Positions 9,689-49,333 of a DNA stretch of 64,000 nt are shown here, in pieces; position 1 is the stretch's first letter; the number at the start of each line of letters is the position of its first letter. The notes beneath the pieces were generated by a model, which worked only from the letters and a program-made list of their open reading frames with translations, had not been told where the DNA came from and did not search any database. Location: the IMG/VR virus record IMGVR_UViG_3300029267_002476, one strand, 5' to 3'. This DNA comes from a virus. The position numbers and the translations under genes were made by a program.

Positions 9689-10039
9689 CTACTTAGACAT
9701 CTCATCGATTCGAAACGAAATATGACAAACGGAATCGTCGTCCTTAACACCCCTGTAGAATTGATTCAAGTGGCCCTTCCATTCCGGGCCAGTGGAAAAC
9801 CCATCCTTCATGACCGTCATCTTGTCACGAGAGAGTTCCCCTATCGTCGACGGACGAACCGACACGATCGTCGCCGTCGCAAACGCAACAGGGTGCCCGT
9901 TCCTCGCCATGAACTCCGTAGTAAACACCAGCTGACTACCCGGCTTATGCGGGCACTCACCAGCAGCATAACGTCTCGTTACTCCCGTTGCCGTCCCATC
10001 CATTATCCTCTGCGTTTCCACCCTTGTACAAGCAAACAT
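9689..10039 (-). CDS. hypothetical protein (possible ASCH/PUA-like fold)
   Basis: 116-aa ORF. The start lies 12 nt from palindrome copy 3 and has a GAGGAGG SD. The fold guess is weak. Confidence 0.45.
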   Translation of the reverse strand: MFACTRVETQRIMDGTATGVTRRYAAGECPHKPGSQLVFTTEFMARNGHPVAFATATIVSVRPSTIGELSRDKMTVMKDGFSTGPEWKGHLNQFYRGVKDDDSVCHISFRIDEMSK

Positions 10040-10051
10040 TGAAACCTCCTC

Positions 10052-10067
10052 GCGAACTCAAGTTCGC
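10052..10067. promoter_or_regulatory. palindrome family copy 3 (GCGAACTCAAGTTCGC)
   Basis: Perfect. Exactly 12 nt upstream of ATG 10039. A TTGACA lies 11 nt further upstream (10079-10084). Confidence 0.8.
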
Positions 10068-10172
10068 AAACTGACACCTGTCAACACGGCATCACATATG
10101 CCCAACATGCTCACCAATGAGTCACTGTAAATCCGACGATACCTAAACTGTGTTCAGTGTCAAGCTGTCGAA

Positions 10173-10565
10173 CTAGCCCTCGGTTATCTTCTTACCCACC
10201 AACTGCTCTAGCACTCTAACCGGGATCATCGCCCAATCCCTGTCACACCGGGGATCTCTTTTCCCGCCCTTGATTTCAATGGCTAACACTGGCTCTTTTT
10301 GCACAGCATCGGCCTCCGCCGTGATCTTCAGCAGCCACTCCCATTTCACAGAAAGGCTCGCGTGCATCGTTTGCTTGCACTCCACAAGGAACTCGACATC
10401 GCACTCCTTGCCCTCAAGCAAAACATCCCTGACATCTGCCTTCGAGTACATGCTCGAACCGGAACCCCGGACCCTCTTGCCCCCAAGTCGATCAGCAACG
10501 CGATCCTCTTGCATAGTAGGAGTGCTCTTGCCGTACCCCATCCCCTTGGGACCACGGAACGGCAT
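10173..10565 (-). CDS. Hjc-like PD-(D/E)XK Holliday junction resolvase/endonuclease
   Basis: QEDRVADRL...RVRGSGSS...ADV...FLVECKQT follows the archaeal Hjc pattern E...GSG...D...ExK. Confidence 0.45.
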   Translation of the reverse strand: MPFRGPKGMGYGKSTPTMQEDRVADRLGGKRVRGSGSSMYSKADVRDVLLEGKECDVEFLVECKQTMHASLSVKWEWLLKITAEADAVQKEPVLAIEIKGGKRDPRCDRDWAMIPVRVLEQLVGKKITEG

Positions 10566-11851
10566 TACTTCTCACCCACCGATTCAAACATTTTCTTGAG
10601 TAGAACAGCACGAAGACTGCGCTGTGTTTCTGGCATCTCGAACGTCGCCAGCATGGATGCTTTCTTATCGAAAACCTTGCCGCCAAGGATCCAGGTTTTC
10701 TTCTTCTTCTCGTTCACGCCCTCTTTCAGAAGGCCATACTTCTCAGCCTGAGCGAGAACGTACTTGGTATCCTCTATCTGCCCGGCCCTTGGCCCAGCAA
10801 TGCACATGACATACCCGCCTGAGATCTTCGCTGTGAATGTTTTGTTCTTCTTTGTCCTGAAATTCAAACGAACTTCCCGGCTCATATCCATCTGCCACTC
10901 GGCCTTGAGATCTGAGTCGAACTTGTCTTTACCCCACTTCGAACTCCACATTTCGAGCGTAAGAACAGGAGCAAACTTCTGACCATTCCCTCCAGGTGCA
11001 GTTTTGTTACTGCCAAACATCACCCCAATCTTCTCTCTCTCTTGGTTAATCCATATGTGTGTAGGTGCATGGCCGTAAGCCCTAAGCACATCCAGGTTCG
11101 CCGCATTGACCTTCCGGATAAACTTATTCATGATCCTCGCATGAAGCCCCTGCTGCCAATCAACAGTGGAAGCCTCGATTTCCTTAGACGGGGTCATGGC
11201 GGCAATCGAGTCCAGAATATACATGTTGACCGCGCCCGTCCTGAGCATGTCGTCGTAAATATCCGCCGCCTCCTCTGCTGACGCCGGACTCACAACAAGA
11301 ACCCTCCGAGGATCCAATCCGAGCCCTCTCGCCCAGCCCGAATCGAATGTCCCCTCGATGTCAAAGAACGCAACACGGAACTCCTCGTAGGAATTCTCCT
11401 TGTACGCCTTCAGACGAGCATTGAAATCCAGCTTGTTCTCACCAGGGAACATAACCGGATCCAGGAGACCCTCATTGAAACAGTCACAGCGCCCCACCGC
11501 GTAATACTCAACCTCACCAGTCTCTCCATCCTCGACGTACTCAACCTCTATGTCATCAACATGCCTGAAACAGTTAGCACACAGATTCTGAGCATTGCCC
11601 GCAACTCGGATAGCAGTAGTAGTTTTGCCAGAACTCTCCCCTCCCTGAAAAATAGAGGTTCGCCCGATGCAGATACCACCGCCTGTCGCAAAATCTAAAC
11701 TAAGACTACCCGTCGATATTCTCGGTATATCCTCTGGCCTGAGATGTATAGCATTGCCAATCGTTCGACCATGCTCCTCGTTGATCTTGCCCTTCAGAGC
11801 CCGTAGACCCTCCCTCAGAACATTCCTGCGCTTAGCGACCTCTTCTGCCAT
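10565..11851 (-). CDS. recA: RecA-family recombinase with a ~70-aa Cys-rich insertion
   Basis: GGESSGKTT Walker A, AFFDIEGTFD, and LVVSPASAEEAADIYDDMLRTGAVNMYILDSIAAMTP are collinear with RecA. A CxxC...CxC insert follows the P-loop helix. Confidence 0.8.
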   Translation of the reverse strand: MAEEVAKRRNVLREGLRALKGKINEEHGRTIGNAIHLRPEDIPRISTGSLSLDFATGGGICIGRTSIFQGGESSGKTTTAIRVAGNAQNLCANCFRHVDDIEVEYVEDGETGEVEYYAVGRCDCFNEGLLDPVMFPGENKLDFNARLKAYKENSYEEFRVAFFDIEGTFDSGWARGLGLDPRRVLVVSPASAEEAADIYDDMLRTGAVNMYILDSIAAMTPSKEIEASTVDWQQGLHARIMNKFIRKVNAANLDVLRAYGHAPTHIWINQEREKIGVMFGSNKTAPGGNGQKFAPVLTLEMWSSKWGKDKFDSDLKAEWQMDMSREVRLNFRTKKNKTFTAKISGGYVMCIAGPRAGQIEDTKYVLAQAEKYGLLKEGVNEKKKKTWILGGKVFDKKASMLATFEMPETQRSLRAVLLKKMFESVGEK

Positions 11852-11885
11852 TCAGTGCCCCTTCCTTTTCTTCTTTGGAGCCAAC

Positions 11886-11914
11886 ATGTTCAACCCTGCA
11901 ACAGCATTTGTCAA
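11886..11914 (-). promoter_or_regulatory. candidate promoter (ATTGACAAA -35; poor -10)
   Basis: The minus strand reads TTGACAaatgctgttgcagggttGAACAT, upstream of recA. Confidence 0.25.
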
Positions 11915-11933
11915 TGTTCATCTGGCGTATTCG

Positions 11934-12218
11934 CTAATACAATAATTCAGTCCAGCGACGACCCGTAATGGCCTCTCCGCTCCCATGACCATCAGGGGCT
12001 CCACCCCCACAGAAAACCCCACTCCCGTAGCCGTGCCCACTTATCGATCCGTACCCGTTTCGCATCTGGTAGCCCCTGCCAGACCCAAACCCGTTGCATT
12101 CACCCCAACCGTATCCACAGCCACAACCATTGTTGCACCGCTGGACATAGTCACGCCCCGGTAATCGACTTGGAAGTTCCAACCCTGGCTCATATTCACG
12201 ATGCACTCGATTTCTCAT
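11934..12218 (-). CDS. Gly/Cys/aromatic-rich small protein
   Basis: ATG at 12218 sits one nt after the upstream stop. GGTGGA SD. CNNGCGCGYGWGECNGFGSGRGYQMRNGYGSISGHGYGSGVFCGGG. Confidence 0.35.
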   Translation of the reverse strand: MRNRVHREYEPGLELPSRLPGRDYVQRCNNGCGCGYGWGECNGFGSGRGYQMRNGYGSISGHGYGSGVFCGGGAPDGHGSGEAITGRRWTELLY

Positions 12219-12219
12219 C

Positions 12220-13269: not shown

Positions 13270-13278
13270 TCTCCCCTC

Positions 13279-13593: not shown

Positions 13594-13648
13594 TAGATTG
13601 TTCCTTTTGAATAGACGACTGCGACACCTCGCCGCAAATACGCACTAT

Positions 13649-13677
13649 CTGTTACTGATTGCCTTGGATTTTGTCAA
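13649..13677 (-). promoter_or_regulatory. sigma70-like promoter (GTTGACAAA, N17, TAACAG)
   Basis: Lies in the 235-nt non-coding gap upstream of 13593. Confidence 0.45.
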
Positions 13678-13822
13678 CTGGAAATAACTAGAAAAACACC
13701 GTCCCACTTTCATGCCTGGCAGGCCCGGTGCCTCCTCGCCAGATCCGACGCAGCCACAAGCGCCGGTAGAGAGGTTCTAGGGTAACCTCCCACATGATTC
13801 ACGTCGATTAACAGGATTCGAC

Positions 13823-13838
13823 GCGAACTTAAGTTCGT
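13823..13838. promoter_or_regulatory. palindrome family copy 4 (GCGAACTTAAGTTCGT, 15/16)
   Basis: Contains the TAA stop (13829-13831) of the upstream gene. Confidence 0.75.
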
Positions 13839-14389
13839 TTTTCAGGATTGCGGATAATGTCCGCTTCTTCGCCTATCCTAACACCAATCTCCTCAGAGAG
13901 TTCATGTATAGTTTGCTCGATTGAATCTTTGTCGCCCACGTGCCTCGACAGCGCCACGTCGACCTTGAAGCTATCCATCCCCTCACCCTTGATGGTAAGG
14001 CCGTACTCAAGCCACACAGACCGCTTCACGCCAAACCCGTCCAGCTTCGGAAACGGCTTCTTAATGACGTCTTGCCCTCTGACCGACGCCTCCTCTCTGT
14101 CGAGGACATGCTTGACCCCCTCGATCATCATGGCATGGGCAAGATGTCGCTCGTCCGAGTTCGGGTTGTGCAACCCGATCCTTATGCCCATGTTGACTCT
14201 CGAAAACTCAAAATTACCAAGTGAAATAGTCCGACCCATCGACACGACGAGATCGTCCGTGTCCTCAGCAGTCTGCTCAACCGGTTTACCGGCATCGTAC
14301 ACGTATTCTTTCACCAACTTCTGATTGCCTCCTCGGTTCGTCACTGTGACCAGTGTCGAATCCTTGCCGTCAACTATTCTCGTCTTCAT
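13829..14389 (-). CDS. hypothetical protein
   Basis: 186-aa ORF. No motif recognised. Confidence 0.5.
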   Translation of the reverse strand: MKTRIVDGKDSTLVTVTNRGGNQKLVKEYVYDAGKPVEQTAEDTDDLVVSMGRTISLGNFEFSRVNMGIRIGLHNPNSDERHLAHAMMIEGVKHVLDREEASVRGQDVIKKPFPKLDGFGVKRSVWLEYGLTIKGEGMDSFKVDVALSRHVGDKDSIEQTIHELSEEIGVRIGEEADIIRNPEKRT

Positions 14390-14927: not shown

Positions 14928-14937
14928 GCGTCCTCCG

Positions 14938-16473: not shown

Positions 16474-16496
16474 CTCGCACTCCAGTCATTCAGCAA

Positions 16497-16982
16497 TCAG
16501 CTTTCTAGCTTGTCTATCTCAGCCTGTCGCTCTACATGGTGTTTCTTACACAGCCAATTTACATCCAACGGACGTGAGTAATCTTCATGATGCGCTTCGG
16601 CAACTGCCTCACCACACTTCTCACAAGGCTGCTTGGTCAACTTGCCAGATCGAATAGCATTGTATACAATGTTCCTAGCACGGACCCTCTCTGGATAACG
16701 CTCTCGCTGCTCCTTAACCTTATCAGGGTTATTCTCGCGCCATTCCTTTAAAACCCGCTTAGCCTTCTCCTTGCGGTGAGGCAACTTTGCCCTCTGGACA
16801 TCATAATCGCGAATCTTTTCGAGGTTCTCTTCACGGTGCTTAGCGACATCTTTTTTCGTACAAACTTTGCACTTGTTCAAATACCCATCAAGCATCGCCC
16901 TATGCCTATAGAACTCAGCCAACAATTTGACCTCGCCGCACTTGAAGCACGCCTTGGCTCTGGTTGCATCGTCGCCCATCAA
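16497..16982 (-). CDS. HNH endonuclease
   Basis: CEKCGEAVAEAHHEDYSRPLDVNWLCKKHH plus N-terminal CFKCG...CKVC zinc-like pairs. Free-standing between the helicase and SSB genes. Confidence 0.65.
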   Translation of the reverse strand: MMGDDATRAKACFKCGEVKLLAEFYRHRAMLDGYLNKCKVCTKKDVAKHREENLEKIRDYDVQRAKLPHRKEKAKRVLKEWRENNPDKVKEQRERYPERVRARNIVYNAIRSGKLTKQPCEKCGEAVAEAHHEDYSRPLDVNWLCKKHHVERQAEIDKLES

Positions 16983-17860
16983 AAAGGAATATCTGGATCG
17001 TCCGGAGGAGTGCCGTCATCATACCCTGCACCCTCTGTACTTCCCTGGCCGCCTTTTTGACCACCGTCATTTCCGCCGCTGTGTCCGCCTACCATGCTCC
17101 TAAGAACATTCACATCCTGGACCTTACAGACCTCAAGCCAGCCAGACTTGTCCCCTTCTGCAAACTCATCGCCAATCGTCTTAACATTGACATCTTCAGG
17201 AGCACCGAATCTCTGGAGGTAGCTAACGTATTCTTCAGGAGCAACCCTGTCGATATAGTCCCACTTGGCTCCGACACCATCTTCCTTCTTGCCAGTCCTT
17301 GTGGCGTCCCAGACGGTTCCCTCCAGGGTGCCTCCGCGCTTCTCAGACTCCCATTGTAATTTCATAAGCGGACCAGGAGTCTCGTTATTCCCTTTTGCCG
17401 CCGCTAACATTTTTCTCTCAAAGCTCGACTCTTTCGTCTCGCCTTGTTTGTTCTTCCAAGTTCGGTGATGCAGGATCATTTCTTTGTCTTTGTACTCGAC
17501 CTGGCCGAGATCAATTATCGAAAGCATCCCCATGAAACGCGGCCAACTGCCATCCTCACAAATAGGGCAAACATCGCCAAGATTGTTCTTCTTGAGACAG
17601 ATTGTATTGTACGCCTTCGTATACTGACGATAGTTGTACAGCCCGTGCTCGAAGAAGCAGAACGGCGCCGCATCAAGAATAAGAACTCTATGCGTCACTG
17701 GTCGCCCAGGGTTAATCGGATTATTCGCCGTGTAATTCATCCGGAAACGGAATTTATAAAGCCGCTCCTTTTCCCAATCATCGCTTAATCCTCCTTCGCC
17801 ACCGCCGTAGTCATCCTCCGGCATATTGTCCCAGCCAACTGAACCAAAGTTTCCTAACAT
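16979..17860 (-). CDS. single-stranded DNA-binding protein (gp32-like Zn motif, acidic DIPF tail)
   Basis: The C-terminus ...DDGTPPDDPDIPF mimics the bacterial SSB tip DDDIPF. CLKKNNLGDVCPICEDG is a Cys cluster. The position in the replication module fits. Confidence 0.6.
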   Translation of the reverse strand: MLGNFGSVGWDNMPEDDYGGGEGGLSDDWEKERLYKFRFRMNYTANNPINPGRPVTHRVLILDAAPFCFFEHGLYNYRQYTKAYNTICLKKNNLGDVCPICEDGSWPRFMGMLSIIDLGQVEYKDKEMILHHRTWKNKQGETKESSFERKMLAAAKGNNETPGPLMKLQWESEKRGGTLEGTVWDATRTGKKEDGVGAKWDYIDRVAPEEYVSYLQRFGAPEDVNVKTIGDEFAEGDKSGWLEVCKVQDVNVLRSMVGGHSGGNDGGQKGGQGSTEGAGYDDGTPPDDPDIPF

Positions 17861-17888
17861 CTTTTGTTACCCTTGCCTTTCTACTAGG

Positions 17889-17928
17889 TTCTCTGTTTCT
17901 CTGTTTTTCTGTTTTTCTGTTTTGTTCT
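17889..17928 (-). repeat. five tandem 8-nt units (ACAGAAAA / ACAGAGAA on the minus strand) in the SSB 5' leader
   Basis: The plus strand reads TTCTCTGT TTCTCTGT TTTTCTGT TTTTCTGT TTTGTTCT. Confidence 0.8.
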
Positions 17929-17943
17929 ATGTTTTGCTTGTAA

Positions 17944-17958
17944 CCAGACGTCGTCTGG
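17944..17958. promoter_or_regulatory. 15-nt palindrome CCAGACGTCGTCTGG (hairpin) in the SSB leader
   Basis: 7-nt arms around a central T. Located between the candidate promoter and the octamer repeats. No U-tract. Confidence 0.5.
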
Positions 17959-17965
17959 CACCTAT

Positions 17966-17994
17966 GGAGTACACATCCACTGTTGTTTTGTCAA
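17966..17994 (-). promoter_or_regulatory. candidate promoter (GTTGACAAA -35; weak -10 TACTCC)
   Basis: Lies between the dnaB stop and the SSB gene. Confidence 0.35.
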
Positions 17995-18006
17995 CAGTTC
18001 GTCTTT

Positions 18007-20616
18007 CTAAAACGACGTAGCCTCGTCCTTGTAGTCATCCTCTTCTTCTGGCATCTCGTCGTACACCATCTTGTCAAAATCCCACCGGATGGAAATCGAA
18101 TCCCTCTTAAACTGACCACGCCGGATCTTTATCGGCTTCATTTTGAGAATGCCGTCGTCCTTGTCATCCTTGGTCTGCTCAAGGGCAATCACTGTATGGG
18201 CATCCTGGCCAACTTCATCCGCATTCGCTATCGTTCCAAGCCTGGCCCCGCCGCCCTTTTTCTCCGAAAGTTCCGCCGACCTGTTTTGTTGTGAATAACC
18301 AACCGCTGCATAGTTGCCCCTCTTACATGACCTCTTGAGCCACTCTACGCCCGCTATCGTCCTCTCTCGCCTGTCGCCCTTAATATGCAAATCGTAGACT
18401 GAATCCACGACTACGCACTCCGCGTCCGTGGCCCTGATCGCAGAGTCTATCCCAGCCGGGGATATGTCATCCTCTTCGTCCATTATCCAGAGATTCTCCG
18501 ATGGATGGGACGCAACAGCACTAAGACTCTCTACCGTCCTCTCCAGTTGGGGTAGCTCGAAATCAGACAATTCGCCAGAGATTAAACGTTTGTACGAAAC
18601 ACAGGAATGGATGACAAAAAACCGCTCTGCAATCTCCTCCTTGGACATCTCAGGAGAGACAAGAAGAACCCGCTTGCCACATAACCAAGCATGGCGAGCA
18701 GCAATGATAGCCACAAACGTGTTGTGAACAACCATGTCGTTTGCAACATAGGCATGCCCGTCCATTACTGTTAAATCGAACACCCTGTGAACGCCGTCGT
18801 CCTCTATGGATTCAATGCGATCCCAGTGATTAACCAGCAGATGCTCAAGATGCTTGGCGTCAAAAGCATCGACAAACGCACGGAATATGCGCCTGCTTAC
18901 TGTGTTCCTCCTGTAGAGCTTGTTCGCGCTGATCCGCACCGTCATCCCAAGCTCACGCGACATCTGCTCATAGCGACGTACTCGCCCGCTCTCATGAAAC
19001 CCTTCAACAATGTGAAGTATCTCCGCTTTCAACTTCGGAGTAATCGGAATGTTATCAACGTTCGGATTCTTAGCATTTTTCAGCAAACGAGCCTTCTCCG
19101 CCTTCTCGCCAACTATCGGTATCTGCTCCTTGAAACGCTCATACGAAGTCGCATAGACCTTGTATATCCAACTATCGAATACGCCCGTCTGACACTTCGA
19201 TCTCTTGTACCTGATTCCGCCGTGTATTCCGAACCTTAAAAACAACCTCTGTATCTGCTCAACCATCTCCTTGGAGGCAAGACCTATCTCGATAGTGCAA
19301 TAGCCATTTTTACCAACAGGAAACGAACCATCGCAGCTCCAGAGCATACCAAGGAACTTGGCCAAGGATTCGTTGTCATACTGGAACACTCTATCAGGAA
19401 TCACCTTGTTCTTTGATAGCGATCTACAGCATCCCCACTCGTCCCATTTCTTCCAAAAATTACGACCACCTTTCACCCTGTAACGACCGTCGTCTTTGCC
19501 CTTTATCATCGGAACAAGCTCACAACCATGATATGACACTGCCTCACGCACAAAACTCACAATCGCCTGATCTCTTTTTGTAAACGTAGGTACATCCTGG
19601 GTCACACCTCCATCAGCCAACATTGCAGCAATGAGCATCGACTCATTGTCACCTACCTTAAACGCCATCTCAGGCTCAGGAACAATACCCACCGCCTCAG
19701 CGTAATCGCCGATCTTAAGTTCGTCCGTCCGCTTCCACCCGTCTACCGTCATCACTGGATGCTCTGGGGTCTGAGACATCTCCCGCCCGCTATAAAAGCG
19801 GACCTTCATACACTCCTTTGTCCCCATATCCAGCCAAGCATCAGGAGTAACACCCACAATAGAACCATTAGACTTTCGGGTGAGAACGTCGTCTCTATCC
19901 TTGACAACCTGCTCTATGGTCTTGTATTGTCCAGTCTTCTTGATGTAGGTTAATGTGCGGGCATGTAGGCATTTCCCTGTGCCGGGGCGGGCCACGAACA
20001 TCGTCAATGTTTTAGGCCACAACCCCGCTGTCATATCATCCAGCGATTTCCAAGGCAGAGGGATCCCCCTGAACCCACTTGCCACCTTGCCGTACGACTC
20101 AAGAACCTGATCACCCATGCCCAACAGACTCATCGGCATGTTAGATTTCTCAAGATCCCTGGTAGCCAGCGCTAGGCCCTCTAACGCCTCTGTCACATGC
20201 AGGGCGTCTCCGCTTGAGAACCCTGCCTCTACGACAATGCGAGCAGCATGGATGACGTTCCTGACCCCTGACAGCTCTCTCACAATCTTGGAGTAATGCT
20301 CTGCATTCGCCGCCGCCGAAATATTATCGGCCAGATCCATCAGCTCGACAGCACCCCCCGCCTTGGAAAGCTCTCCGGTCTTCATCATCTCGTGGCCAAG
20401 GGTAACGTGATCCACTGGCATGCCGCCCTTGGATACACGCTCCATTGCCTTGTATATAATCTTATGGGTTTCGAAGAAAAAGTCGGACGGCTCGATTATC
20501 GTTGCCACGGTTTCCAAAACCGAATTATCCAACAGTACGCTACCCAGGATTTTGCGTTCAGCTTCTCGGTTAGAAGGCGGAACCCTTCCGTTGCCGACAT
20601 CGGCAGCATTCATCAT
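18007..20616 (-). CDS. dnaB: DnaB-family replicative helicase interrupted by an intein
   Basis: N-terminal EAERKILGSVLLDNS. The Walker A motif ARPGTGK|...|TFVAIIAA is split. Downstream are VVVDSVYDL and YSQQNR motifs. Confidence 0.85.
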   Translation of the reverse strand: MMNAADVGNGRVPPSNREAERKILGSVLLDNSVLETVATIIEPSDFFFETHKIIYKAMERVSKGGMPVDHVTLGHEMMKTGELSKAGGAVELMDLADNISAAANAEHYSKIVRELSGVRNVIHAARIVVEAGFSSGDALHVTEALEGLALATRDLEKSNMPMSLLGMGDQVLESYGKVASGFRGIPLPWKSLDDMTAGLWPKTLTMFVARPGTGKCLHARTLTYIKKTGQYKTIEQVVKDRDDVLTRKSNGSIVGVTPDAWLDMGTKECMKVRFYSGREMSQTPEHPVMTVDGWKRTDELKIGDYAEAVGIVPEPEMAFKVGDNESMLIAAMLADGGVTQDVPTFTKRDQAIVSFVREAVSYHGCELVPMIKGKDDGRYRVKGGRNFWKKWDEWGCCRSLSKNKVIPDRVFQYDNESLAKFLGMLWSCDGSFPVGKNGYCTIEIGLASKEMVEQIQRLFLRFGIHGGIRYKRSKCQTGVFDSWIYKVYATSYERFKEQIPIVGEKAEKARLLKNAKNPNVDNIPITPKLKAEILHIVEGFHESGRVRRYEQMSRELGMTVRISANKLYRRNTVSRRIFRAFVDAFDAKHLEHLLVNHWDRIESIEDDGVHRVFDLTVMDGHAYVANDMVVHNTFVAIIAARHAWLCGKRVLLVSPEMSKEEIAERFFVIHSCVSYKRLISGELSDFELPQLERTVESLSAVASHPSENLWIMDEEDDISPAGIDSAIRATDAECVVVDSVYDLHIKGDRRERTIAGVEWLKRSCKRGNYAAVGYSQQNRSAELSEKKGGGARLGTIANADEVGQDAHTVIALEQTKDDKDDGILKMKPIKIRRGQFKRDSISIRWDFDKMVYDEMPEEEDDYKDEATSF
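18721..19971 (-). mobile_element. class-1 intein (417 aa) with LAGLIDADG homing endonuclease, inserted in the DnaB P-loop
   Basis: Starts at Cys216 (CLHARTL) and has block B TPEHPV. Two LAGLIDADG-like motifs (LIAAMLADGG, LAKFLGMLWSCDGS). Ends VVHN|T. Excision restores GTGKT. Confidence 0.8.
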
Positions 20617-20627
20617 ATTTTGCCCCT

Positions 20628-22579: not shown

Positions 22580-22903
22580 CTAATTTCGGGCACCAGCCCG
22601 CATATTCCCGCGAGCATTCCCCCGCGCATTATCCTCTTCTGTCACATAATCAAGATCGATTTTAATCTTGTGCTTCCCCGCAACCGCAGCCAGGAGAGCC
22701 CTCAGCGAAGTGGTCAAATAACCATTGCGCCCCACCACCTGGCCAACGTCGCCAGGATGAGTGTACAGTTCAACAGTCAAGCGGTATGGCCCTTCGCGAA
22801 CCTCCACAATTATATCATCAGGGTGATCAACAAAGTGCCGGACAGACCCCACGATTTCACGTGCGGCATCCAATATTTCAGAACTGATTCTGCTATCGCT
22901 CAT
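22580..22903 (-). CDS. KH-domain RNA-binding protein (KhpA/YlqC-like)
   Basis: IIVEVREGPYRLTVELYTHPGDVGQVVGRNGYLTTSLRALL matches the type-II KH GxxG pattern (VGRNG). Confidence 0.55.
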   Translation of the reverse strand: MSDSRISSEILDAAREIVGSVRHFVDHPDDIIVEVREGPYRLTVELYTHPGDVGQVVGRNGYLTTSLRALLAAVAGKHKIKIDLDYVTEEDNARGNARGNMRAGARN

Positions 22904-23272: not shown

Positions 23273-23288
23273 GCGAACTTGAGTTCGC
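23273..23288. promoter_or_regulatory. palindrome family copy 5 (GCGAACTTGAGTTCGC)
   Basis: Perfect. Intergenic, 50 nt upstream of the start at 23222. Confidence 0.8.
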
Positions 23289-27708: not shown

Positions 27709-27733
27709 TCACTCCTTGCCTATCCGCAAAGGA

Positions 27734-27762
27734 GCAATAGCCCGATGGACGTGCTTTGTCAA
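27734..27762 (-). promoter_or_regulatory. sigma70-like promoter (GTTGACAAA, N17, TATTGC)
   Basis: Intergenic, about 25 nt upstream of the AAGGAG SD of gene 27082-27708. Confidence 0.45.
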
Positions 27763-27781
27763 CTAATTGATGGTTGGAATA

Positions 27782-33720: not shown

Positions 33721-33936
33721 TCAACTTGCTGCATATCCCGGATTTAGCCACTGATTAGCAACCGTTCGACCGCCCTGGTCTGCCACGTACTCAGAGACAG
33801 ACGCGCCCCACCTTGTTGCGATAGTGCTCGCCCTCTCCTCGGTGGTGAACACCCCGTATACAACCACGTCGACCCGCTGAATGGTTCCCGTGGAGCTTTT
33901 CTCTTCCGACGTCTTGGAAACAACATACAATGTCAT
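33721..33936 (-). CDS. hypothetical protein
   Basis: 71 aa. The start lies 12 nt from palindrome copy 6. GGGAG SD. Confidence 0.5.
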   Translation of the reverse strand: MTLYVVSKTSEEKSSTGTIQRVDVVVYGVFTTEERASTIATRWGASVSEYVADQGGRTVANQWLNPGYAAS

Positions 33937-33948: not shown

Positions 33949-33964
33949 GCGAACTTGAGTTCGC
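33949..33964. promoter_or_regulatory. palindrome family copy 6 (GCGAACTTGAGTTCGC)
   Basis: Perfect. It abuts the upstream TAG stop and lies 12 nt from ATG 33936. Confidence 0.8.
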
Positions 33965-35159: not shown

Positions 35160-35210
35160 TTTCAACTCCTCAGTTTCGGGCCGGGGGTTTTCCCCGTCCT
35201 CTCACTATAC

Positions 35211-35239
35211 AATTTACGTCCTGCAAAGGGGTTTGTCAA
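35211..35239 (-). promoter_or_regulatory. sigma70-like promoter (GTTGACAAA, N17, TAAATT)
   Basis: The minus strand reads GTTGACAaacccctttgcaggacgTAAATT. It is a paralog of the promoter at 3093-3121. Confidence 0.55.
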
Positions 35240-35265
35240 CAAGCTGAGGAAAGAAAAAAGCATTT

Positions 35266-35898: not shown

Positions 35899-36170
35899 CA
35901 GTCACACCCCCCTGGGAGACACGTAGACTCCCCGTCTGTATCCACACAGCATTTCCAGTCCGCCCCGTCGGCGCTCCAGACATCACTGCAATCCATGACC
36001 TCGTCCCAGTCGCCATCGGCGTTGCATATCTCCACCGAGTTCCCAGCGCACCTAGTCACTTCTGCCTCGCACCCCTCGCCGCAAGAGGTAAGGACAAGCA
36101 CAAGGAACCCAAAGCACGTGGCGATGGCCATTAGCGCAAAAAAGGACAACACACCGTTATCAATTCTCAT
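35898..36170 (-). CDS. Cys-rich putative lipoprotein
   Basis: ATG 36170 lies 6 nt after GGGAGG. Signal sequence plus lipobox-like LVLTSC. Nine Cys in the mature part. Confidence 0.45.
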   Translation of the reverse strand: MRIDNGVLSFFALMAIATCFGFLVLVLTSCGEGCEAEVTRCAGNSVEICNADGDWDEVMDCSDVWSADGADWKCCVDTDGESTCLPGGCD

Positions 36171-36414
36171 CTTCATCCTCCCATACTCCAAGGTTCACAT
36201 AGGCGCTTCTCCCGCCCAGCTTCCTGGCCACCTCTGTGCGCTCACATTCAGAGCAGCGAATATCAACATGATAGACATCTCTCTCTGTCGAGAAAGCGCC
36301 CGACTCGGATCTCCTAGCTTGAATATCCTCGGATCCGCATGGACAGACGAGCTTAAACTGAGATGGGCGCGGGCCTCGACGAACGTTAACAATTCGTATC
36401 CTGTCTTCGGTCAC
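36160..36414 (-). CDS. small Cys-containing protein
   Basis: The GTG start lies 12 nt from palindrome copy 7, with a GAGGAGGG SD. CPCG...CSEC. Confidence 0.45.
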   Translation of the reverse strand: MTEDRIRIVNVRRGPRPSQFKLVCPCGSEDIQARRSESGAFSTERDVYHVDIRCSECERTEVARKLGGRSAYVNLGVWEDEDEN

Positions 36415-36426: not shown

Positions 36427-36442
36427 GCGAACTCAAGTTCGC
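36427..36442. promoter_or_regulatory. palindrome family copy 7 (GCGAACTCAAGTTCGC)
   Basis: Perfect. It contains the TGA stop of the MT-A70 gene and lies 12 nt from the next start. Confidence 0.8.
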
Positions 36443-37038
36443 TGTGATAAAGCTCGCAAACCAGACCGTATATCAAGCGGGGATTTCTCCTCGATGAAAT
36501 CGAATACATCCTTGCCGTCGAGTTCCAAGCCTGTCTGATCCCATCCCTCGCATTTGCTGCGAGCGAAAAGCTCAAGCCTCGGAACATCACCATAGAGCTG
36601 GACAATCCGATCTCTGACGGACTCCGGCTTCTCAGAATGCTTGCCGACAGGATCCATGACAACTGAATGAACACCCGCCGAAACGCGAGGCACCTTGCCG
36701 CGCAGCCCAAGCAGCACAAACTCAGCGCAGGCTCTTGTTGTATTTCCCATCCCCCAAAAAAGCGTCTTGGCTTTCTTGTTGGTCTTCACCCACGTGAAGG
36801 CTATGTTCTTGTACTTGAAGCCATATGACCGCATCAAATCGATAGCTTCCGGCATCAGAGGACTCGTGGCCCATAAGAAGAGCGCACAATTCTCCGCAGC
36901 GAGATCCCTTATTCTCATCTGCGAAAGATCTCTCATGCTCATAGTGCTGTATTTATAATCAACGCCGCGCTTGCCTGCGCTCGCCTTGTCCGAATATGAC
37001 CACGGGAAGTCCGCGAGAATAACATTATATTTAGACAC
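36433..37038 (-). CDS. MT-A70-family N6-adenine DNA methyltransferase
   Basis: ILADFPWSY (DPPW-type motif), LFLWATSP, and small size (201 aa). Confidence 0.7.
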   Translation of the reverse strand: MSKYNVILADFPWSYSDKASAGKRGVDYKYSTMSMRDLSQMRIRDLAAENCALFLWATSPLMPEAIDLMRSYGFKYKNIAFTWVKTNKKAKTLFWGMGNTTRACAEFVLLGLRGKVPRVSAGVHSVVMDPVGKHSEKPESVRDRIVQLYGDVPRLELFARSKCEGWDQTGLELDGKDVFDFIEEKSPLDIRSGLRALSQRT

Positions 37039-37349: not shown

Positions 37350-37802
37350 TCAACCCTCATGCTTGTCCCAACACGCATTACACAACTGATTAATGGCTCC
37401 CCTTGCCCTGTCGCCGATCCATCTTGAAACCCCGCCTGGTCTGCCCAAGAGCCTCCTGAGCAGCCTCCCTCGTATATCCTCAGCAACCCTGTTGCCGCAA
37501 CCAGGACAGCCCCAGGAAAGCTCGCCCCCTTCGCCAATCGGCACAAACTGATAATCGACACGAACGCATGGGCCGTCCCAGCCGAAAGGCCACCGAACCT
37601 TGATTATCCCCGTTACCTTGGGAGAGCGACCTGCCAGAGATGCTATCCCCGGCTTCTTCTTGTTCTTGACCATGGCCTTAGAAAGACGAAGCTCTATCTC
37701 TCGAACCCTCTCAAGGGCATTTTCTTTCTCAGCAGCCGGGGTGTCTGGGTGATCTATCAAGCGCTCCAGGTCCGCGAGCAAAGCCTTTTTATCAAAACTC
37801 AT
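37350..37802 (-). CDS. hypothetical protein with CxxC pairs
   Basis: 150 aa. It is the first gene downstream of the control region. CPGCG...CNAC. Confidence 0.5.
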   Translation of the reverse strand: MSFDKKALLADLERLIDHPDTPAAEKENALERVREIELRLSKAMVKNKKKPGIASLAGRSPKVTGIIKVRWPFGWDGPCVRVDYQFVPIGEGGELSWGCPGCGNRVAEDIRGRLLRRLLGRPGGVSRWIGDRARGAINQLCNACWDKHEG

Positions 37803-37900
37803 TCAGAAACCTTCCATCAACTTGCCTCAGCTACCAACATGGCCCAATCTTTGAGCCCCTCTTACACGCTAGCTTTTGGGTTTTCAAATCAGCCAAGCGG

Positions 37901-37929
37901 ACGTTAGAGCCTGCTTACTGCTTTGTCAA
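37901..37929 (-). promoter_or_regulatory. sigma70-like promoter (GTTGACAAA, N17, TAACGT)
   Basis: Lies in the divergent control region and would drive the 37802-downward operon. Confidence 0.5.
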
Positions 37930-38001
37930 CCCATATATTGTTACCCTGGGGTATTCGCTTCTTCTTGGCTTTGGAAAGGAAAGAATTTTTAGGTGGAGAA
38001 C

Positions 38002-38030
38002 AATATGCGCGATCATTTTTTGCGTGTCAA
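38002..38030 (-). promoter_or_regulatory. second candidate minus-strand promoter (TTGACA, N17, CATATT)
   Basis: The minus strand reads TTGACAcgcaaaaaatgatcgcgCATATT. Confidence 0.4.
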
Positions 38031-38092
38031 TACCCTAAATTCAAATTCGTATTTCACCCGTGATTCCACATACATAGGTCACTTTTTGACCT

Positions 38093-38108
38093 GCGAACTT
38101 AAGTTCGT
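38093..38108. promoter_or_regulatory. palindrome family copy 8a (GCGAACTTAAGTTCGT, 15/16)
   Basis: Part of the 19-nt direct repeat ACCTGCGAACTTAAGTTCG (38089-38107 and 38129-38147). Confidence 0.8.
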
Positions 38109-38132
38109 TTGCCCAAAAAGGGGCTAAAACCT

Positions 38133-38148
38133 GCGAACTTAAGTTCGC
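38133..38148. promoter_or_regulatory. palindrome family copy 8b (GCGAACTTAAGTTCGC)
   Basis: Perfect. 40 bp from copy 8a, between the divergent promoters. Confidence 0.8.
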
Positions 38149-38195
38149 GGCTTACATTTTTTCAAAACAGGGCCGCGATCCTCCCTGTTGGACAG

Positions 38196-38223
38196 TTGAC
38201 AAACCCATGCTATGCGTTATTTT
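38196..38223 (+). promoter_or_regulatory. plus-strand sigma70-like promoter (GTTGACAAA, N16, TATTTT)
   Basis: This is the only GTTGACAAA copy on the plus strand. It lies upstream of the plus-strand gene. Confidence 0.5.
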
Positions 38224-38323
38224 TTAATAGAAACCAAGCCACCCAGGGAGAGGCAAACTGGAAGAAGCAAACAAGCAAGAAGTCGCTCAGGAAATCTTCC
38301 GACAGTTCGGCGGAAACCGATCA

Positions 38324-38566
38324 ATGGCAATGATCGGTGGTACTCCCATTGCCGACGGCAACACGCTCCGCATTCGCTTCAAAATGAGAGCGGCCAACAA
38401 GGCTAACCTTTTCAAGATAACGCTCAACTCAATGGACACTTATGACCTGGAATTCGGTCGAGTACACGGGATGAAATACAGGATCATCAAGGAGTACAAC
38501 GGCATCTACGCCGATCAACTCCAAGAGATCTTCCGGCAAGATACCTGTCTAGCTCTTAACCTCTAA
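38324..38566 (+). CDS. hypothetical protein (plus strand); the true start may be upstream at CTG 38258
   Basis: 80-aa ATG ORF. The frame is open from 38231. A strong GGGAGAGG SD at 38246-38253 precedes CTG 38258. Convergent with 38567-38929. Confidence 0.5.
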   Translation: MAMIGGTPIADGNTLRIRFKMRAANKANLFKITLNSMDTYDLEFGRVHGMKYRIIKEYNGIYADQLQEIFRQDTCLALNL

Positions 38567-40670: not shown

Positions 40671-40671
40671 C

Positions 40672-41394: not shown

Positions 41395-41482
41395 GATAAC
41401 CTCTCTCAAATGGCAAAAAAACAACGCCCTTAAATAAATACCACACGAACAATACCATTGTCATTAAACGCGGAACAGGCAG

Positions 41483-41854: not shown

Positions 41855-41996
41855 TGGGTGCCTCCATCCATGTTTCCTGTGCTTCTAGCGCCCCCATCAT
41901 CCTCCGAGCAGAGCGTTGCCGAGTTCGGAATGACTGATGGATTCTCCGTCGGACGTTCTTCATTGATACCTCCCAGGAATCGCATAAAAGCCGCCC

Positions 41997-42012
41997 GCGA
42001 ACTTGAGTTCGT
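41997..42012. promoter_or_regulatory. palindrome family copy 9 (GCGAACTTGAGTTCGT, 15/16)
   Basis: It abuts the TGA stop at 42012-42014 and lies 33 nt upstream of ATG 41963. Confidence 0.75.
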
Positions 42013-42242
42013 CACGTGATCACTCCTATTCCAGGCGGAACCAGAGCAGAACCACCCGGAGCTTCCGTCACGGATACCTCTGCGTTAGCCACTATGTAGT
42101 CTATGATCGCCGCCGCCTCTTTGTTCAGAGCCGGAGCATCCTTCTCCACCCTGTAACTCTTCCCCCACGCCTCTTTGCGAGCAGCAGCTATGGCGCCAGC
42201 AAGACCAGTCCCCAATAAAGCGTCCCCTGCCTCAAGCGCCAT
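42012..42242 (-). CDS. hypothetical Ala/Gly-rich small protein
   Basis: 76-aa ORF. Confidence 0.45.
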   Translation of the reverse strand: MALEAGDALLGTGLAGAIAAARKEAWGKSYRVEKDAPALNKEAAAIIDYIVANAEVSVTEAPGGSALVPPGIGVIT

Positions 42243-43292: not shown

Positions 43293-43294
43293 GA

Positions 43295-43825: not shown

Positions 43826-43834
43826 GGAAGCCTC

Positions 43835-46492: not shown

Positions 46493-46494
46493 TT

Positions 46495-49305
46495 TTACCT
46501 CTGATAGCGGGATACAGTAAAAGTGAAACGGACATCACCGTAAGTGATGCCTGCTGCTGCAATTGCCTCTATTTTTACATTGGCATTGTTACCAATGTCC
46601 GAAGTTACATCTTCATTTTCAGTCACAGTGTACCAAGTGGTTGCATCGCTAACCCCTGTCGTGTCCGTAGAAGTCCAAACCACCGATGCTGATTCATCGT
46701 AAAGATTGAACGTCTGAGTCTGAGACAAACTCATGTCTCCGCGCTGCTCAACCTTCATCAGTATCTTGGTAGGCATGGGCCGCAAAGACCCGTCTCCAAC
46801 GGCACTGGGAACAGCCGTCGTTACACCCACATCGGTGTCTTCCTCGTTGGCATTTAGGACCACGGTGTCTATCACGTAGTCACCGTCGTTGGCCGTCGAG
46901 TCAACGATGGTAATCGTCTCGCCAGCCGCCAGATCCTTCGTCCTGTCGCCAGTGATCGTAAACGTATTCGTGACTGTGCTGGCAGCGGTAACCCCAGAAA
47001 GATCGTCCGAAAGGAATTCAGACGCCAGAGTCTCTTCTATCGTCGCTCCGGTATCCACGTTCTCAAGCGTCCATTCTTTCGAGACAGCCCAGTCCACTAC
47101 ACGAGTATGAATGGGAGCCAGGGTCGCTACAATCTTGCGCCGAAGGCGACCCACCGCCGCGTCCATGCTGACCCCAGATCCGTAATGCTCGTAAGCCTCA
47201 GCAGTCGGGGTGATCTCCACGCGCCGCTTGTAAGACAAGCAGAAACAACAATTCTCAAGATCCAATTCAGGCACATACCGGATAGCAATATCCGTCCAAT
47301 GAACCTCTCCGTCGGCTCCAGAGTCAGCCGCAGGCCCAGGAGATACAACGAGGTCTGTGTTCACCCCGTTGAGAGTCGCAGAGATGACCGTGTAATCGGT
47401 GTCATTGGCCGTCGACCGAATGATACCAATGGAATCGCCAGCGGAGACAGTAGCCGTATGATCCCCCGAAATCTTAACCGTAGCCGATGCCGCAACAACA
47501 GACACGATGTCCGCGTGACCTACGACGGGACCATCGACGGCTACCCCAGAGGAATCCGTTCCAACTCCAATGACAACAGTCATCGACCCAACGTCGTCGT
47601 CCGATGGCGTCGCAGGAGAAGTCGGGTCGGACCATGCACTCAGCACACTATCAATCCAGAATATATCGTCCCCGTAAGCTGGTGGAACGCTGGCGGCCTT
47701 CTGGTATTCTGTGATACCAAACTTGCCCTTCACCCAACTCCAGTTCTCTGCCTGGCAACGCATCATACGAATCTCTACGAAATACCCGGCCTGCAAACCG
47801 TAAGACAGGAGCTGTTCATTAGTGAGGGCGGTCACGGATACAGCACCTGCCGGATCTCTCGGAATAGCAGACAGCGGATGAGGAGTATCGGCCACGTTGG
47901 CATAATACCCCTGCGCTACGTCGAGAGCGTACGCCAGCCCGACCGAATACCCGTCCGTGGAATCGTCCAAGTGCACAATCGCGTTGTCCACTAACGTGAC
48001 CCATGACGACGTGTCCGGATCGTAAAGTTCTTCATCGGCGGCGATGTCGTCAAAACGCAGATACTTAGGCTCGATGTCCGTGTACATGGTCCCGTGATAC
48101 ATGAACGCATTCTGAACGGGTATAGACGCCCAAAAAGAAGAATCGCAAATCCTCCACAGCGACCGCACAAACACGTCGAACAGGCTTATCTCACCTCTGA
48201 TCCTGTACGAATCCTGAGACGCTTTTAACCCAAAATACTTCGAAATATTGGCAATCGTAGATCTCTGAACATCCTCTGGGTCGTTCCGGTCGTTCTCGAA
48301 CCCGAAGTCACGAGCAAGATGGTCAATTATCCGAGGGCGCTGCATGGATAGGTAATACCCGCGCACCGTGAATTTACTCGTAATATCGACGTCCGCATCA
48401 GCGTTCGTCGGGAGAGCCATCACAATCTCTCCAGTCTCGTAGTTGACAGTTCCGTATGAGGTGGCCGTAACGATGTCCGTCCCGGAAGCCGGATACATGT
48501 TCCCGGAGCCGTCCCACGGAACATTCGGGACATCATAAAGAGGCACGATAGACGAGGAAATCGACACGTTTATGTTCACCTTCGCGTTGGCAACGAGCCA
48601 AGGAGTTGGAGAATCGGTGTCATTGTACGCAAGGCGCAGAGGCTTGAACGGCAAAACCACGCTAGGCTCTTGAGAGTTGTCACCCTCTCCGATCACCACG
48701 TCTTCCCATTCAAACGGAATATAGAGATCGTCGCTCTTTATCCAGACCTCATTCCCAAGGGAAGAACCAGAGATGTACTGCCCCGGCCAATCGAAGTTCC
48801 TCGTCCTGACCTTGACTACTTCGTACCTTGCATCTTCCCCGGCTACCCCATCGTCGGTAACACCGTGCCATCGACACCACCACCACCGCGCAATCGAGGA
48901 AATAGGAGCATAAGGAAACCACGGATACCACTCATCAAGGACCGACTGGGTCGCCGACGGGGGATCCTCTTCGTCTGTCTCTGGCATCTGGGTATAATCA
49001 GGCTCGCCAACCAGACGAACAACTTTACCCCAGTAGTCATCCTCATACGAAAGAGCGCTCGTGAAATAGAACCATTCCTCCACGCCTTCTTCCGCTATCA
49101 CCTGATAAGGATCTCTCTGAGACGGCAAGGCAGCGATTTGATTCAGGAAACTTTCCCCTTCGTCACCGAGAACCTTGAGGAACCCTTCCATCCACCCATC
49201 TACATCCAGGGCTTTTTGCTGCGTAGGGACATTCCCCCAGAATATCCGTCGCCCCCAGTAGCCTTTCCCAAAGAAGCCGTAACCACCTGGATCGCTAGAT
49301 GACAT
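46495..49305 (-). CDS. large baseplate/tail-fibre-associated protein
   Basis: 936 aa. N-terminal FLNQIAALPSQRDPY is reminiscent of P2 gpI-type tail proteins. The start lies 12 nt from palindrome copy 10. Confidence 0.55.
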   Translation of the reverse strand: MSSSDPGGYGFFGKGYWGRRIFWGNVPTQQKALDVDGWMEGFLKVLGDEGESFLNQIAALPSQRDPYQVIAEEGVEEWFYFTSALSYEDDYWGKVVRLVGEPDYTQMPETDEEDPPSATQSVLDEWYPWFPYAPISSIARWWWCRWHGVTDDGVAGEDARYEVVKVRTRNFDWPGQYISGSSLGNEVWIKSDDLYIPFEWEDVVIGEGDNSQEPSVVLPFKPLRLAYNDTDSPTPWLVANAKVNINVSISSSIVPLYDVPNVPWDGSGNMYPASGTDIVTATSYGTVNYETGEIVMALPTNADADVDITSKFTVRGYYLSMQRPRIIDHLARDFGFENDRNDPEDVQRSTIANISKYFGLKASQDSYRIRGEISLFDVFVRSLWRICDSSFWASIPVQNAFMYHGTMYTDIEPKYLRFDDIAADEELYDPDTSSWVTLVDNAIVHLDDSTDGYSVGLAYALDVAQGYYANVADTPHPLSAIPRDPAGAVSVTALTNEQLLSYGLQAGYFVEIRMMRCQAENWSWVKGKFGITEYQKAASVPPAYGDDIFWIDSVLSAWSDPTSPATPSDDDVGSMTVVIGVGTDSSGVAVDGPVVGHADIVSVVAASATVKISGDHTATVSAGDSIGIIRSTANDTDYTVISATLNGVNTDLVVSPGPAADSGADGEVHWTDIAIRYVPELDLENCCFCLSYKRRVEITPTAEAYEHYGSGVSMDAAVGRLRRKIVATLAPIHTRVVDWAVSKEWTLENVDTGATIEETLASEFLSDDLSGVTAASTVTNTFTITGDRTKDLAAGETITIVDSTANDGDYVIDTVVLNANEEDTDVGVTTAVPSAVGDGSLRPMPTKILMKVEQRGDMSLSQTQTFNLYDESASVVWTSTDTTGVSDATTWYTVTENEDVTSDIGNNANVKIEAIAAAGITYGDVRFTFTVSRYQR

Positions 49306-49317
49306 TTTCGCTCCATT

Positions 49318-49333
49318 GCGAACTCAAGTTCGC
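49318..49333. promoter_or_regulatory. palindrome family copy 10 (GCGAACTCAAGTTCGC)
   Basis: Perfect. Exactly 12 nt upstream of ATG 49305. Confidence 0.8.

Follow-up and report, generated by a model that had tools for sequence, protein, structure and literature searches.

What is known of gene regulation in T4-like phages comes almost wholly from T4, with its sigma appropriation, its gp55 late promoters and its regulators RegA and RegB. Here we analyze a 16-bp palindrome, hereafter the box, that recurs at gene boundaries in the IMG/VR virus record IMGVR_UViG_3300029267_002476, a 64,000-nt stretch of DNA referred to in its full length as the window, and in its T4-like relatives. Several described elements resemble the box in sequence or placement. 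The SOS box of B. subtilis is GAACN4GTTC (PMC4234289), and LexA motifs are stable across whole phyla (PMC8565304). In phage GIL01, the truncated LexA homolog gp6 activates late transcription and has a perfect palindrome of 14 bp as its binding site (PMC6182141). The P3 leader of GIL01, which we read directly from the sequence, holds the host-LexA site dinBox3, aGCGAACAAACATTCGa (GCGAACAAACATTCG), which ends 3 nt before the Shine-Dalgarno (SD) sequence. The start-associated sequences (SAS) of cluster K mycobacteriophages are phage-specific repeats, conserved across subclusters, that lie just before many starts and sometimes over the upstream stop; the inverted repeats of their extended form (ESAS) were judged likelier to be sites of DNA binding than RNA hairpins, departures from symmetry being non-compensatory (PMC3203893). 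Cluster A mycobacteriophages carry stoperators, many copies of a repressor site in short intergenic regions that halt RNA polymerase (PMC9283540, PMC6550527). In the promoter early stem-loop (PeSL) of T4-type phages, a stem-loop stands close before an early promoter, and an SD and a start codon come next (PMC4122927).

The box has the core of the Gram-positive LexA operator, CGAAC-N4-GTTCG, and a dyad of the same size (14–16 bp). It differs from that operator in that its center is limited to T-Y-R-A and its flanks to R...Y, in its abundance (12 or more near-perfect copies in 64 kb of a T4-like phage whose window shows no lysogeny genes), and in that it precedes structural genes and tRNAs too. 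The box-then-SD layout is that of the GIL01 P3 leader. GIL01 gp6 is a LexA DNA-binding domain without a cleavage/dimerization domain, as is a 96-aa product encoded in the window (gene 8311–8601), but gp6 acts at one activating site centered at −43.5 (PMC6182141). Boxes placed 12 nt from a start codon are incompatible with class II activation of this kind, and the gp6 site, GACACAC-GTGTGAC, is unrelated in sequence to the box. The box shares with SAS and ESAS the position before starts and over upstream stops, and with ESAS the inverted repeat, whose non-compensatory departures are also our ground for preferring DNA binding. However, SAS is an asymmetric 13-mer in a single orientation with the SD core inside it, 3–7 bp from the start, and ESAS has imperfect, variably spaced 17-bp arms, whereas the box is one rigid palindrome of 16 bp, placed outside the SD and 9–18 nt from the start, and is also found at tRNAs, at promoters and within coding sequence. 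Stoperators are alike in number and intergenic placement, but they are asymmetric, orientation-dependent 13-mers read by a monomeric immunity repressor in temperate phages. PeSLs share the T4-like background and the stem-loop at gene borders (PMC2839356, PMC4122927), and one window site, box 23273, fits their arrangement, but PeSL stems are variable and generic, whereas the box stem is invariant across distant phages and mostly has no promoter after it. At the four copies first noted in the window and at most SD-adjacent sites there is no room for a promoter, the start codon being only 9–18 nt away. We rate the box as a genome-wide operator-like repeat of a phage that falls outside the definitions of SAS, PeSL and terminator.

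The window contains seven exact occurrences of GCGAACTYRAGTTCGC, against 0.00 expected from 100 shuffles, and 12 sites when one mismatch is allowed. The pattern GAAC-N4-GTTC occurs 12 times, against 0.98 expected, and returns those same 12 sites. A chance origin (12 sites against about one expected) is thus rejected, and the palindrome is a real, strongly non-random element under selection. Boxes were read on the minus (coding) strand, which carries all window genes except one. The arms CGAAC...GTTCG are intact at 11 of the 12 sites; the remaining one, 61541, has TGAAC in one arm. It is also the only site within an open reading frame (ORF) and could be a degenerate copy or have arisen by chance; the other 11 lie between genes or overlap the stop codon of the gene before them. 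An initial annotation of this DNA had described four palindromes lying exactly 12 nt before a start codon. Their strings and spacing proved exact on the minus strand, and eight further copies (Table 1) bring the family to three times that number.

A pattern scan of IMG/VR returned at least 102 loci with the box, and 66 of the listed loci are linked with the window by protein similarity; together they form the clade sample used below. Across these 66 T4-like loci we count more than 100 non-redundant box sites. Their proteins are 35–65% identical in amino acid sequence to those of the window, and their base composition ranges from AT-rich to about 55% GC. The clade has the T4-type hallmark genes (portal gp20, prohead protease gp21, capsid gp23 and tail sheath). 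Its capsid protein shares no more than 31% identity with the capsid proteins of cultured phages, the window helicase is less than 30% identical to cultured phages, and INPHARED yielded no nucleotide or protein match to the 20-kb core of the window or to the 936-aa protein encoded after box 49318. The hallmark genes and the low identity to cultured phages point to a deep, uncultured T4-like clade. Orthologous junctions keep the box after the MT-A70 methylase gene (relatives L017 and L051), before the homolog of gene 9689–10039 (L025) and before the homolog of the 936-aa protein (L052). Mobile element ends of the IS605/REP kind were rejected as an origin, given that the TnpB genes are not flanked by boxes and that orthologous junctions across phages keep them. 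A literature search for the 16-mer retrieved only short hairpin RNA constructs and no paper on the motif, and Rfam gave no match at the gathering threshold anywhere in the window.

The box consensus is a degenerate perfect palindrome of 16 bp, RCGAACTY-RAGTTCGY. Among 104 non-redundant clade sites with at most two mismatches, the 14-bp core CGAACT-YR-AGTTCG (12 specified positions per site) has only 8 mismatches in total, a conservation that speaks for recognition of the sequence beyond that of a fold, while 43 of the 51 mismatches in the box are a G>A change at the outermost half-site position. We oriented 110 sites by the SD and by GC skew, which gave the same orientation in 42 of 43 cases. 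In this oriented set, the outer variants affect the left arm only at 15 sites, the right arm only at 15 and both arms at 8; on the coding strand, 15 are of the A·C type and 15 of the G·U type. The center is Y-R at 108 of the 110 sites (CA 50, TG 25, CG 24, TA 9), so that each half-site reads RCGAACTY, as expected of a homodimer on duplex DNA. The symmetric outer variants and the Y-R center together define a perfect degenerate palindrome. Complementarity ends at the box edge, the first flanking base pair being complementary in 25% of sites, as expected by chance. As RNA, the box is predicted to form a hairpin of −6.7 kcal/mol with a 6-bp stem and a 4-nt loop; three related phages keep variants with a mid-stem transversion (−2.2 kcal/mol).

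An SD and a start codon lie within 40 nt of the box at 48 of 93 clade sites. Spacing was analyzed in the 42 closest SD-adjacent clade sites, the four window sites included. The SD hexamer starts 0–3 nt after the box at 36 of them, which bears out the description of the palindrome as fused to the SD, and 35 have a G at position +6 after the box. The distance to the start codon is 7–22 nt, mostly 12–15 nt (7 sites at 12 nt, 5 at 13, 6 at 14, 7 at 15 and 4 at 18), and four of the seven sites in the 12-nt class belong to the window. At the orthologs of the window sites the spacing is 9/12 nt in L017 (two adjacent ATGs), 15 nt in L051, 14 nt in L052 and 18 nt in L025, and the exact 12 nt is therefore special to this genome. 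The initial annotation had treated the fixed 12 nt as a shared trait and had named its loss in related phages as a reason to abandon a functional role; the spacing does vary among relatives, but the box itself is kept. The conserved feature is a LexA-box-like dyad at the 5′ edge of expression units, not the 12-nt spacing. At all four window sites, GGAG begins 2–3 nt past the box and ends 5–6 nt before the start codon.

A function specific to translation initiation, also proposed in that annotation, does not fit the other placements of the box, which is found at tRNAs, promoters and stop codons and inside a gp22-like coding sequence as well. A tRNA gene starts 1–2 nt after a box in L109 and L011 (2 nt in L109), and the 19-nt spacer between tRNA-Ala and tRNA-Arg in the 18-tRNA array of L018 is filled by one. 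Promoters of the form TTGACA-N17-TAnnnT follow the box at 23273 in the window and in L065, L086, L022, L025 (position 4684), L077 (position 2260) and L068/L044. The upstream stop codon lies in the box center (36427, 13823) or at its first base (33949, 41997). In about 20 loci (L061/L089/L076/L034 and others) the box sits inside a gp22-like prohead scaffold gene, none of which is found in the window; its codons CGA-ACT-CAA-GTT-CGC encode R-T-Q-V-R in the context ...S-R-T-Q-V-R-E..., and a Q>R replacement (TCAA to TCGA) leaves the palindrome intact. The nucleotide conservation of this intragenic box goes beyond the needs of the protein. In the L030/L063 lineage, a synonymous CGA>CGC change breaks it. 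Every site lies among co-directional genes in a transcribed context; a box at a strand switch, which would have told a DNA model from an RNA model, was not found. At three of the 12 window boxes (10052, 36427 and 38133), a TTG-type −35 places the box center at the −10 position, against a chance expectation that we put, by our own rough estimate, at about 0.3. For the first two, this arrangement and the TTGACA and TTGCGA hexamers 11 nt upstream had already been pointed out, and the coordinates were re-verified. At box 10052, a 17-bp spacer after TTGACA brings the −10 position onto TTGAGT at the box center.

We tentatively favor the reading, short of calling it probable, that the box is a high-affinity site on double-stranded DNA for a symmetric dimeric protein of the LexA winged-helix type. 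Two-fold symmetry, the Y-R center, sharp edges, a weak hairpin and tolerance of stem breaks argue for recognition of duplex DNA by a symmetric dimer. A translational operator, an RNA processing site and an operator over a promoter had been put forward for the palindrome and are all possible; among them, the symmetry of conservation favors DNA recognition by a protein. The box core has the sequence that defines a Gram-positive-type SOS/LexA box, and the stability of LexA motifs within phyla would explain identical boxes in AT-rich and GC-rich phages. On the box match, a LexA-domain gene in the window and the precedents in GIL01, our best specific guess is a protein of the LexA type.

The LexA-domain gene, 8311–8601, comes third in the gene string behind box 10052, and the box overlaps the predicted promoter of that string. 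When 68 window proteins were scanned against Pfam, one LexA_DNA_bind domain was detected, in the product of this gene (PF01726, 36.1 bits against a cutoff of 23.7, residues 12–67 of 96), whose best PDB matches are LexA N-terminal domains. The protein consists of the N-terminal winged helix only, without the S24 peptidase/dimerization domain, and fits the definition of a truncated LexA; its similarity to GIL01 gp6 is weak (25% identity over 44 aa). An exhaustive HMMER search with it retrieved 639 relatives, and the top 150 are mostly LexA-domain-only proteins of 75–160 aa. Short proteins of this LexA-domain-only kind thus make up a large family, most of it unnamed. A second scan with the L011 homolog recovered only that homolog itself. 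The window shows no enrichment of the E. coli-type SOS box, CTGT-N8-ACAG. A RecA-like gene (10565–11851) lies in the gene string after box 13823, about 2 kb away and with its own promoter-like site between, and boxes precede structural and tRNA genes as well as repair-type genes. The LexA-domain gene lies in a box-headed string, and the box is close in length to the 14-bp site of gp6; on this sequence evidence, the link between the protein and the box is circumstantial.

We infer that a protein binds the box DNA, that it is of the LexA type and that its binding represses. The likely reader in the window phage would be its own 96-aa LexA-domain-only protein, host LexA, or both. Boxes stand at the borders of expression units, in the short leader directly before the SD, and some of them cover the −10/+1 region or the −35 of a candidate promoter. 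A protein on the box would keep RNA polymerase from initiating or elongating, and this would gate the unit beyond it, whether a cistron, a tRNA or a promoter-led operon; boxes without a promoter would act as roadblocks to elongating RNA polymerase, as stoperators do. The exact 12 nt in the window would be a by-product of two optima, an SD 2–3 nt past the box and a start codon 5–6 nt past GGAG.

Several observations weigh against a LexA-type operator. Among motif-bearing IMG/VR contigs, a LexA-domain gene was found only in the window phage and in 3300017990_000012, and there is none at the syntenic position of a 176-kb relative. Conversely, no GAAC box occurs in other IMG/VR loci that encode relatives of the LexA-domain protein, in the 122-kb contig that carries the truncated-LexA relative P0003, or in Myxococcus phage Mx4, which has another such relative. 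The recognition helix reads STNAVAD in the window protein and SPNAAEE in E. coli LexA; presumably it is nearer to the E. coli than to the Gram-positive type. Across the clade, a −35 at a fixed distance is no more frequent than background (4 of 41 sites at offset 17), and no conserved sequence was found upstream of the box. Without a fixed-distance promoter, the protein would have to act as a roadblock at most sites, and a DNA model alone leaves the tight abutment to the SD or to the tRNA 5′ end unexplained. In addition, TCAA centers outnumber TTGA centers on the coding strand (50 vs 25), which hints at strand dependence, and four of four inner-stem transition variants are wobble-compatible on that strand (p about 0.06).

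These last asymmetries, the 2:1 bias toward TCAA and the G·U compatibility, speak for an RNA signal, as does the way the box abuts RNA starts, with the SD hexamer 0–3 nt and, in L109, a tRNA 2 nt beyond it. In such a punctuation system, which we hold to be possible yet rather unlikely, the transcribed palindrome would be a hairpin read by some conserved factor of phage or host, such as an endoribonuclease that cuts the stem at its 3′ base, a protein that represses translation or one that protects 5′ ends. Each unit downstream (an SD-led cistron or a tRNA) would then begin right behind the hairpin, and each unit upstream would end with it. The box that fills a tRNA-tRNA spacer in L018, the boxes on or just past stop codons and the exclusively co-directional, transcribed sites are all consistent with it. 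T4 itself has hairpin-plus-SD translational operators (gene 43) and the SD-targeting RegB. However, the hairpin is weak, and it is the sequence that is kept, not the pairing: there is no covariation, the core has hardly any mismatches, the outer-pair variants do not prefer G·U over A·C, and the conserved mid-stem transversions break the stem. The Y-R loop center and the invariant T7 and A10 have no natural explanation in RNA, Rfam has no match, and we identified no candidate hairpin-specific RNA-binding protein. The KH-domain protein encoded at 22580–22903 was considered as a clade-wide reader and rejected, having been found in one relative only.

Boundary elements of the PeSL kind would make the box the stem-loop of a terminator/promoter/SD cassette that dampens read-through and aids modular recombination by microhomology. 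The T4-like hallmark genes of the clade suit this idea, as do the TTGACA-N17-TAnnnT promoters after box 23273 and about seven sites in relatives and the same box beside different genes in rearranged relatives (L035 vs L025). So does the 23-nt string GCGAACTTGAGTTCGCGAGGAGG, identical at approximately 10052–10074 and 36427–36449 before two unrelated genes, which suggests copying or gene conversion of a box-plus-SD unit. We nevertheless consider it improbable. Most boxes have no promoter between box and SD, and only a few are followed by a T-run (5955, L025:4684), which argues that the box is not an intrinsic terminator; that definition is also at odds with a 6-bp stem of −6.7 kcal/mol and with the purine-rich SDs after the four first-noted sites. 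PeSL stems vary within and between phages, whereas the box core is invariant at 35–65% amino acid identity; selection for evolvability cannot keep 14 of 14 bases at more than 100 sites, and copies in coding sequence and in a tRNA array do not fit. Very little likelihood attaches also to the box as a promoter-defining element, from which phage-directed transcription would start at or just past the 3′ edge, with leaders beginning at the SD or tRNA. In its favor, no upstream motif other than the box is strongly enriched in the window subclade, a sample biased by the choice of loci for the box; the box is also widespread before genes; it precedes many late-type genes (terminase-like, tail, head); it occurs in tandem with sigma-70-like promoters, like T4 late and early promoters; the last 10 nt before it are AT-rich (0.62 vs 0.52–0.55 further upstream); and no clear late motif of the TATAAATA type was found, the T4 late-promoter motif being only weakly enriched just upstream of the box. 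But a perfect palindrome would fire both ways, while the genes nearly all face one way; the box is unlike any −10 element, a transcription start site 6–7 nt past a −10-like core would cut into the SD, and we identified neither a phage RNA polymerase nor a sigma factor in the window. A hairpin promoter of the N4 type was also considered; no virion RNA polymerase is evident, and the box loop has 4 nt, not 3. The 2050-aa ORF around box-like site 61541 gave only a faint DUF5907 repeat match.

Table 1 Boxes of the window with their adjoining genes and promoter-like elements. Boxes are named in the text by their first coordinate.
Feature	Position	Strand	Description
Box, first-noted	10052..10067	.	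GCGAACTTGAGTTCGC on coding strand, then GAGGAGGTTTCA, then ATG 10039 at 12 nt
−35-like TTGACA	10079..10084	minus	11 nt upstream of box 10052
Gene after box 10052	9689..10039	minus	116 aa, faint ASCH match; SD GAGGAGG at 10045–10051
Gene string headed by box 10052			g9689_10039 > g8602_9654 > LexA DNA-binding-domain gene
LexA DNA-binding-domain-only gene	8311..8601	minus	96 aa
Box, first-noted	33949..33964	.	GCGAACTCAAGTTCGC on coding strand, then CGGGAGATCAGT, then ATG 33936 at 12 nt; first base overlapped by TAG stop of upstream gene 33964–34323
Gene after box 33949	33721..33936	minus	71 aa; DUF7336 at 21.5 bits, under the Pfam 25-bit cutoff
Box, first-noted	36427..36442	.	then GAGGAGGGCTAG, then GTG 36414 at 12 nt; center holds TGA stop of MT-A70 methyltransferase gene (36433–37038)
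−35-like TTGCGA	36454..36459	minus	11 nt upstream of box 36427
Gene after box 36427	36160..36414	minus	84 aa, Cys-X-Cys and Cys-X2-Cys motifs
Box, first-noted	49318..49333	.	then AATGGAGCGAAA, then ATG 49305 at 12 nt
Gene after box 49318	46495..49305	minus	936-aa structural gene
Box, further copy	3701..3716	.	in 257-nt gap, 46 nt before ATG 3654
Box, further copy	5955..5970	.	one outer mismatch; 6 nt past stop at 5977; T-run and TATGAT hexamer after; TTGAGT at center could be a −35
Box, further copy	13823..13838	.	one outer mismatch; TAA stop of gene 13829–14389 in center; promoter-like TTGACAAA about 150 nt downstream
Box, further copy	23273..23288	.	TTGACA...TATAAA 10 nt further on, PeSL-like arrangement; heads unit with KH-domain gene 22580–22903
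Box, further copy	38093..38108	.	one outer mismatch; second of tandem pair 40 bp apart, in 725-nt gap
Box, further copy	38133..38148	.	fully symmetric TTAA center; TTGAAA 11 nt upstream (38160–38165)
Box, further copy	41997..42012	.	one outer mismatch; 33 nt before ATG 41963; first base overlapped by TGA stop of gene 42012–42242
Box-like site, further copy	61541..61556	.	GTGAACTTAAGTTCGC inside 2050-aa ORF
GTTGACAAA examples	35166–35265, 27709–27781, 17861–18006, 13594–13828, 11852–11917, 4501–4608, 3109–3201		probable host-RNA-polymerase (early) promoters

Window promoters generally combine a strong TTGACAAA −35 with weak −10s. The −35-like GTTGACAAA recurs in several window intergenic regions, with weak, variable −10 hexamers 17 bp downstream, and these sites are probably the early promoters of the phage, read by host RNA polymerase. 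An AGA(A)TTAAA-like motif occurs in three longer gaps of the structural region (49306–49508, 50079–50181 and 56382–56485) as the copies GATAGAATTAAAAAGG, GGAAGATTAAACATT, GATAGAATCAAATAC and CAGATTAAATCTC, the last directly before box 49318, and could be a late-promoter element. The tandem boxes 38093 and 38133 lie in a region, 37562–38566, with an apparent gap of 725 nt, several small hairpins (GCCCCTTTTTGGGC, AGGTCAAAAAGTGACCT) and two minus-strand TTGACA promoters. The only plus-strand gene of the window (about 38250–38566; 80 aa from ATG 38324, possibly longer) is found here with its own TTGACAAA promoter at 38196–38201. It has no Pfam match and no homolog in the fetched loci, and the small ORFs around the tandem boxes gave no Pfam matches. 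An A-rich tandem repeat, AACAGAAAAACAGAAAAACAGAGAAACAGAGAAC, occupies the leader (17861–18006) of gene 16979–17860, downstream of a TTGACAAA site.

Among the other minus-strand genes of the window, 18007–20616 encodes a replicative helicase of the DnaB type, split by an intein that has a LAGLIDADG endonuclease domain; in the relative L072, the portal gene has an intein with an HNH domain. Two TnpB/OrfB_IS605 genes with a Cas12f-like TNB domain (28809–30062 and 32265–33446) lie about 2 kb apart. No TnpA was seen, and the closest genome match of TnpB, at 36%, is a metagenome-assembled genome of the Steroidobacteraceae. The KhpA-like KH-domain (RNA-binding) protein of 22580–22903 belongs to the unit that follows box 23273 and a TTGACA promoter; at 70% identity, it is better conserved between the window and L015 than any other protein. 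Three tandem genes at 50182–53490 (367, 360 and 367 aa), with DUF6923 and DUF5074 repeat matches in at least two, look by size and position like paralogous tail-fiber/receptor-binding genes, and 56486–57811 encodes a beta-helix (pectate-lyase-like) protein. The window has no tRNA genes. L018 and L068 have arrays of 16–18 tRNAs, and ARAGORN reads a 4-base anticodon (ccta) in a tRNA of relatives that directly follows a box. Relatives also encode transfer-messenger RNA with the unusual tag ends ...MQAAA, ...WAEAA and ...LAEAA. This tRNA and the transfer-messenger RNAs were noted in L109 (7573–7647 and 10798–11161), L034, L036, L100 and L102.

One invariant 16-bp dyad thus stands at more than 100 gene boundaries of a deep-branching T4-like clade, before replication, structural and tRNA genes. 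In the most far-reaching form of the LexA-type reading, which we regard as unlikely, this clade of large, apparently lytic phages wires dozens of genes, tRNAs and promoters to one LexA-type operator directly before the SD and gates expression genome-wide. If so, gating would be exerted by host LexA, to be lifted by the SOS signal or titrated as genome copies multiply, or else by an uncleavable phage-encoded LexA DNA-binding domain. The result would be a timer, coupled to replication or to damage, for which there is no described example among T4-like phages. The motif marks the clade in metagenomes, a scan with the 16-mer pattern having recovered dozens of related contigs, and it identifies true gene starts; it also provides a small, testable DNA or RNA ligand for the 96-aa LexA-domain protein. 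Should the box prove to be an RNA signal, it would represent a new sequence-specific system of intercistronic punctuation. Should it be a LexA-type operator, the lytic program of these phages would be tied to the SOS regulator of the host or to a LexA mimic made by the phage, and the stoperator logic of mycobacteriophages would extend to another viral lineage.

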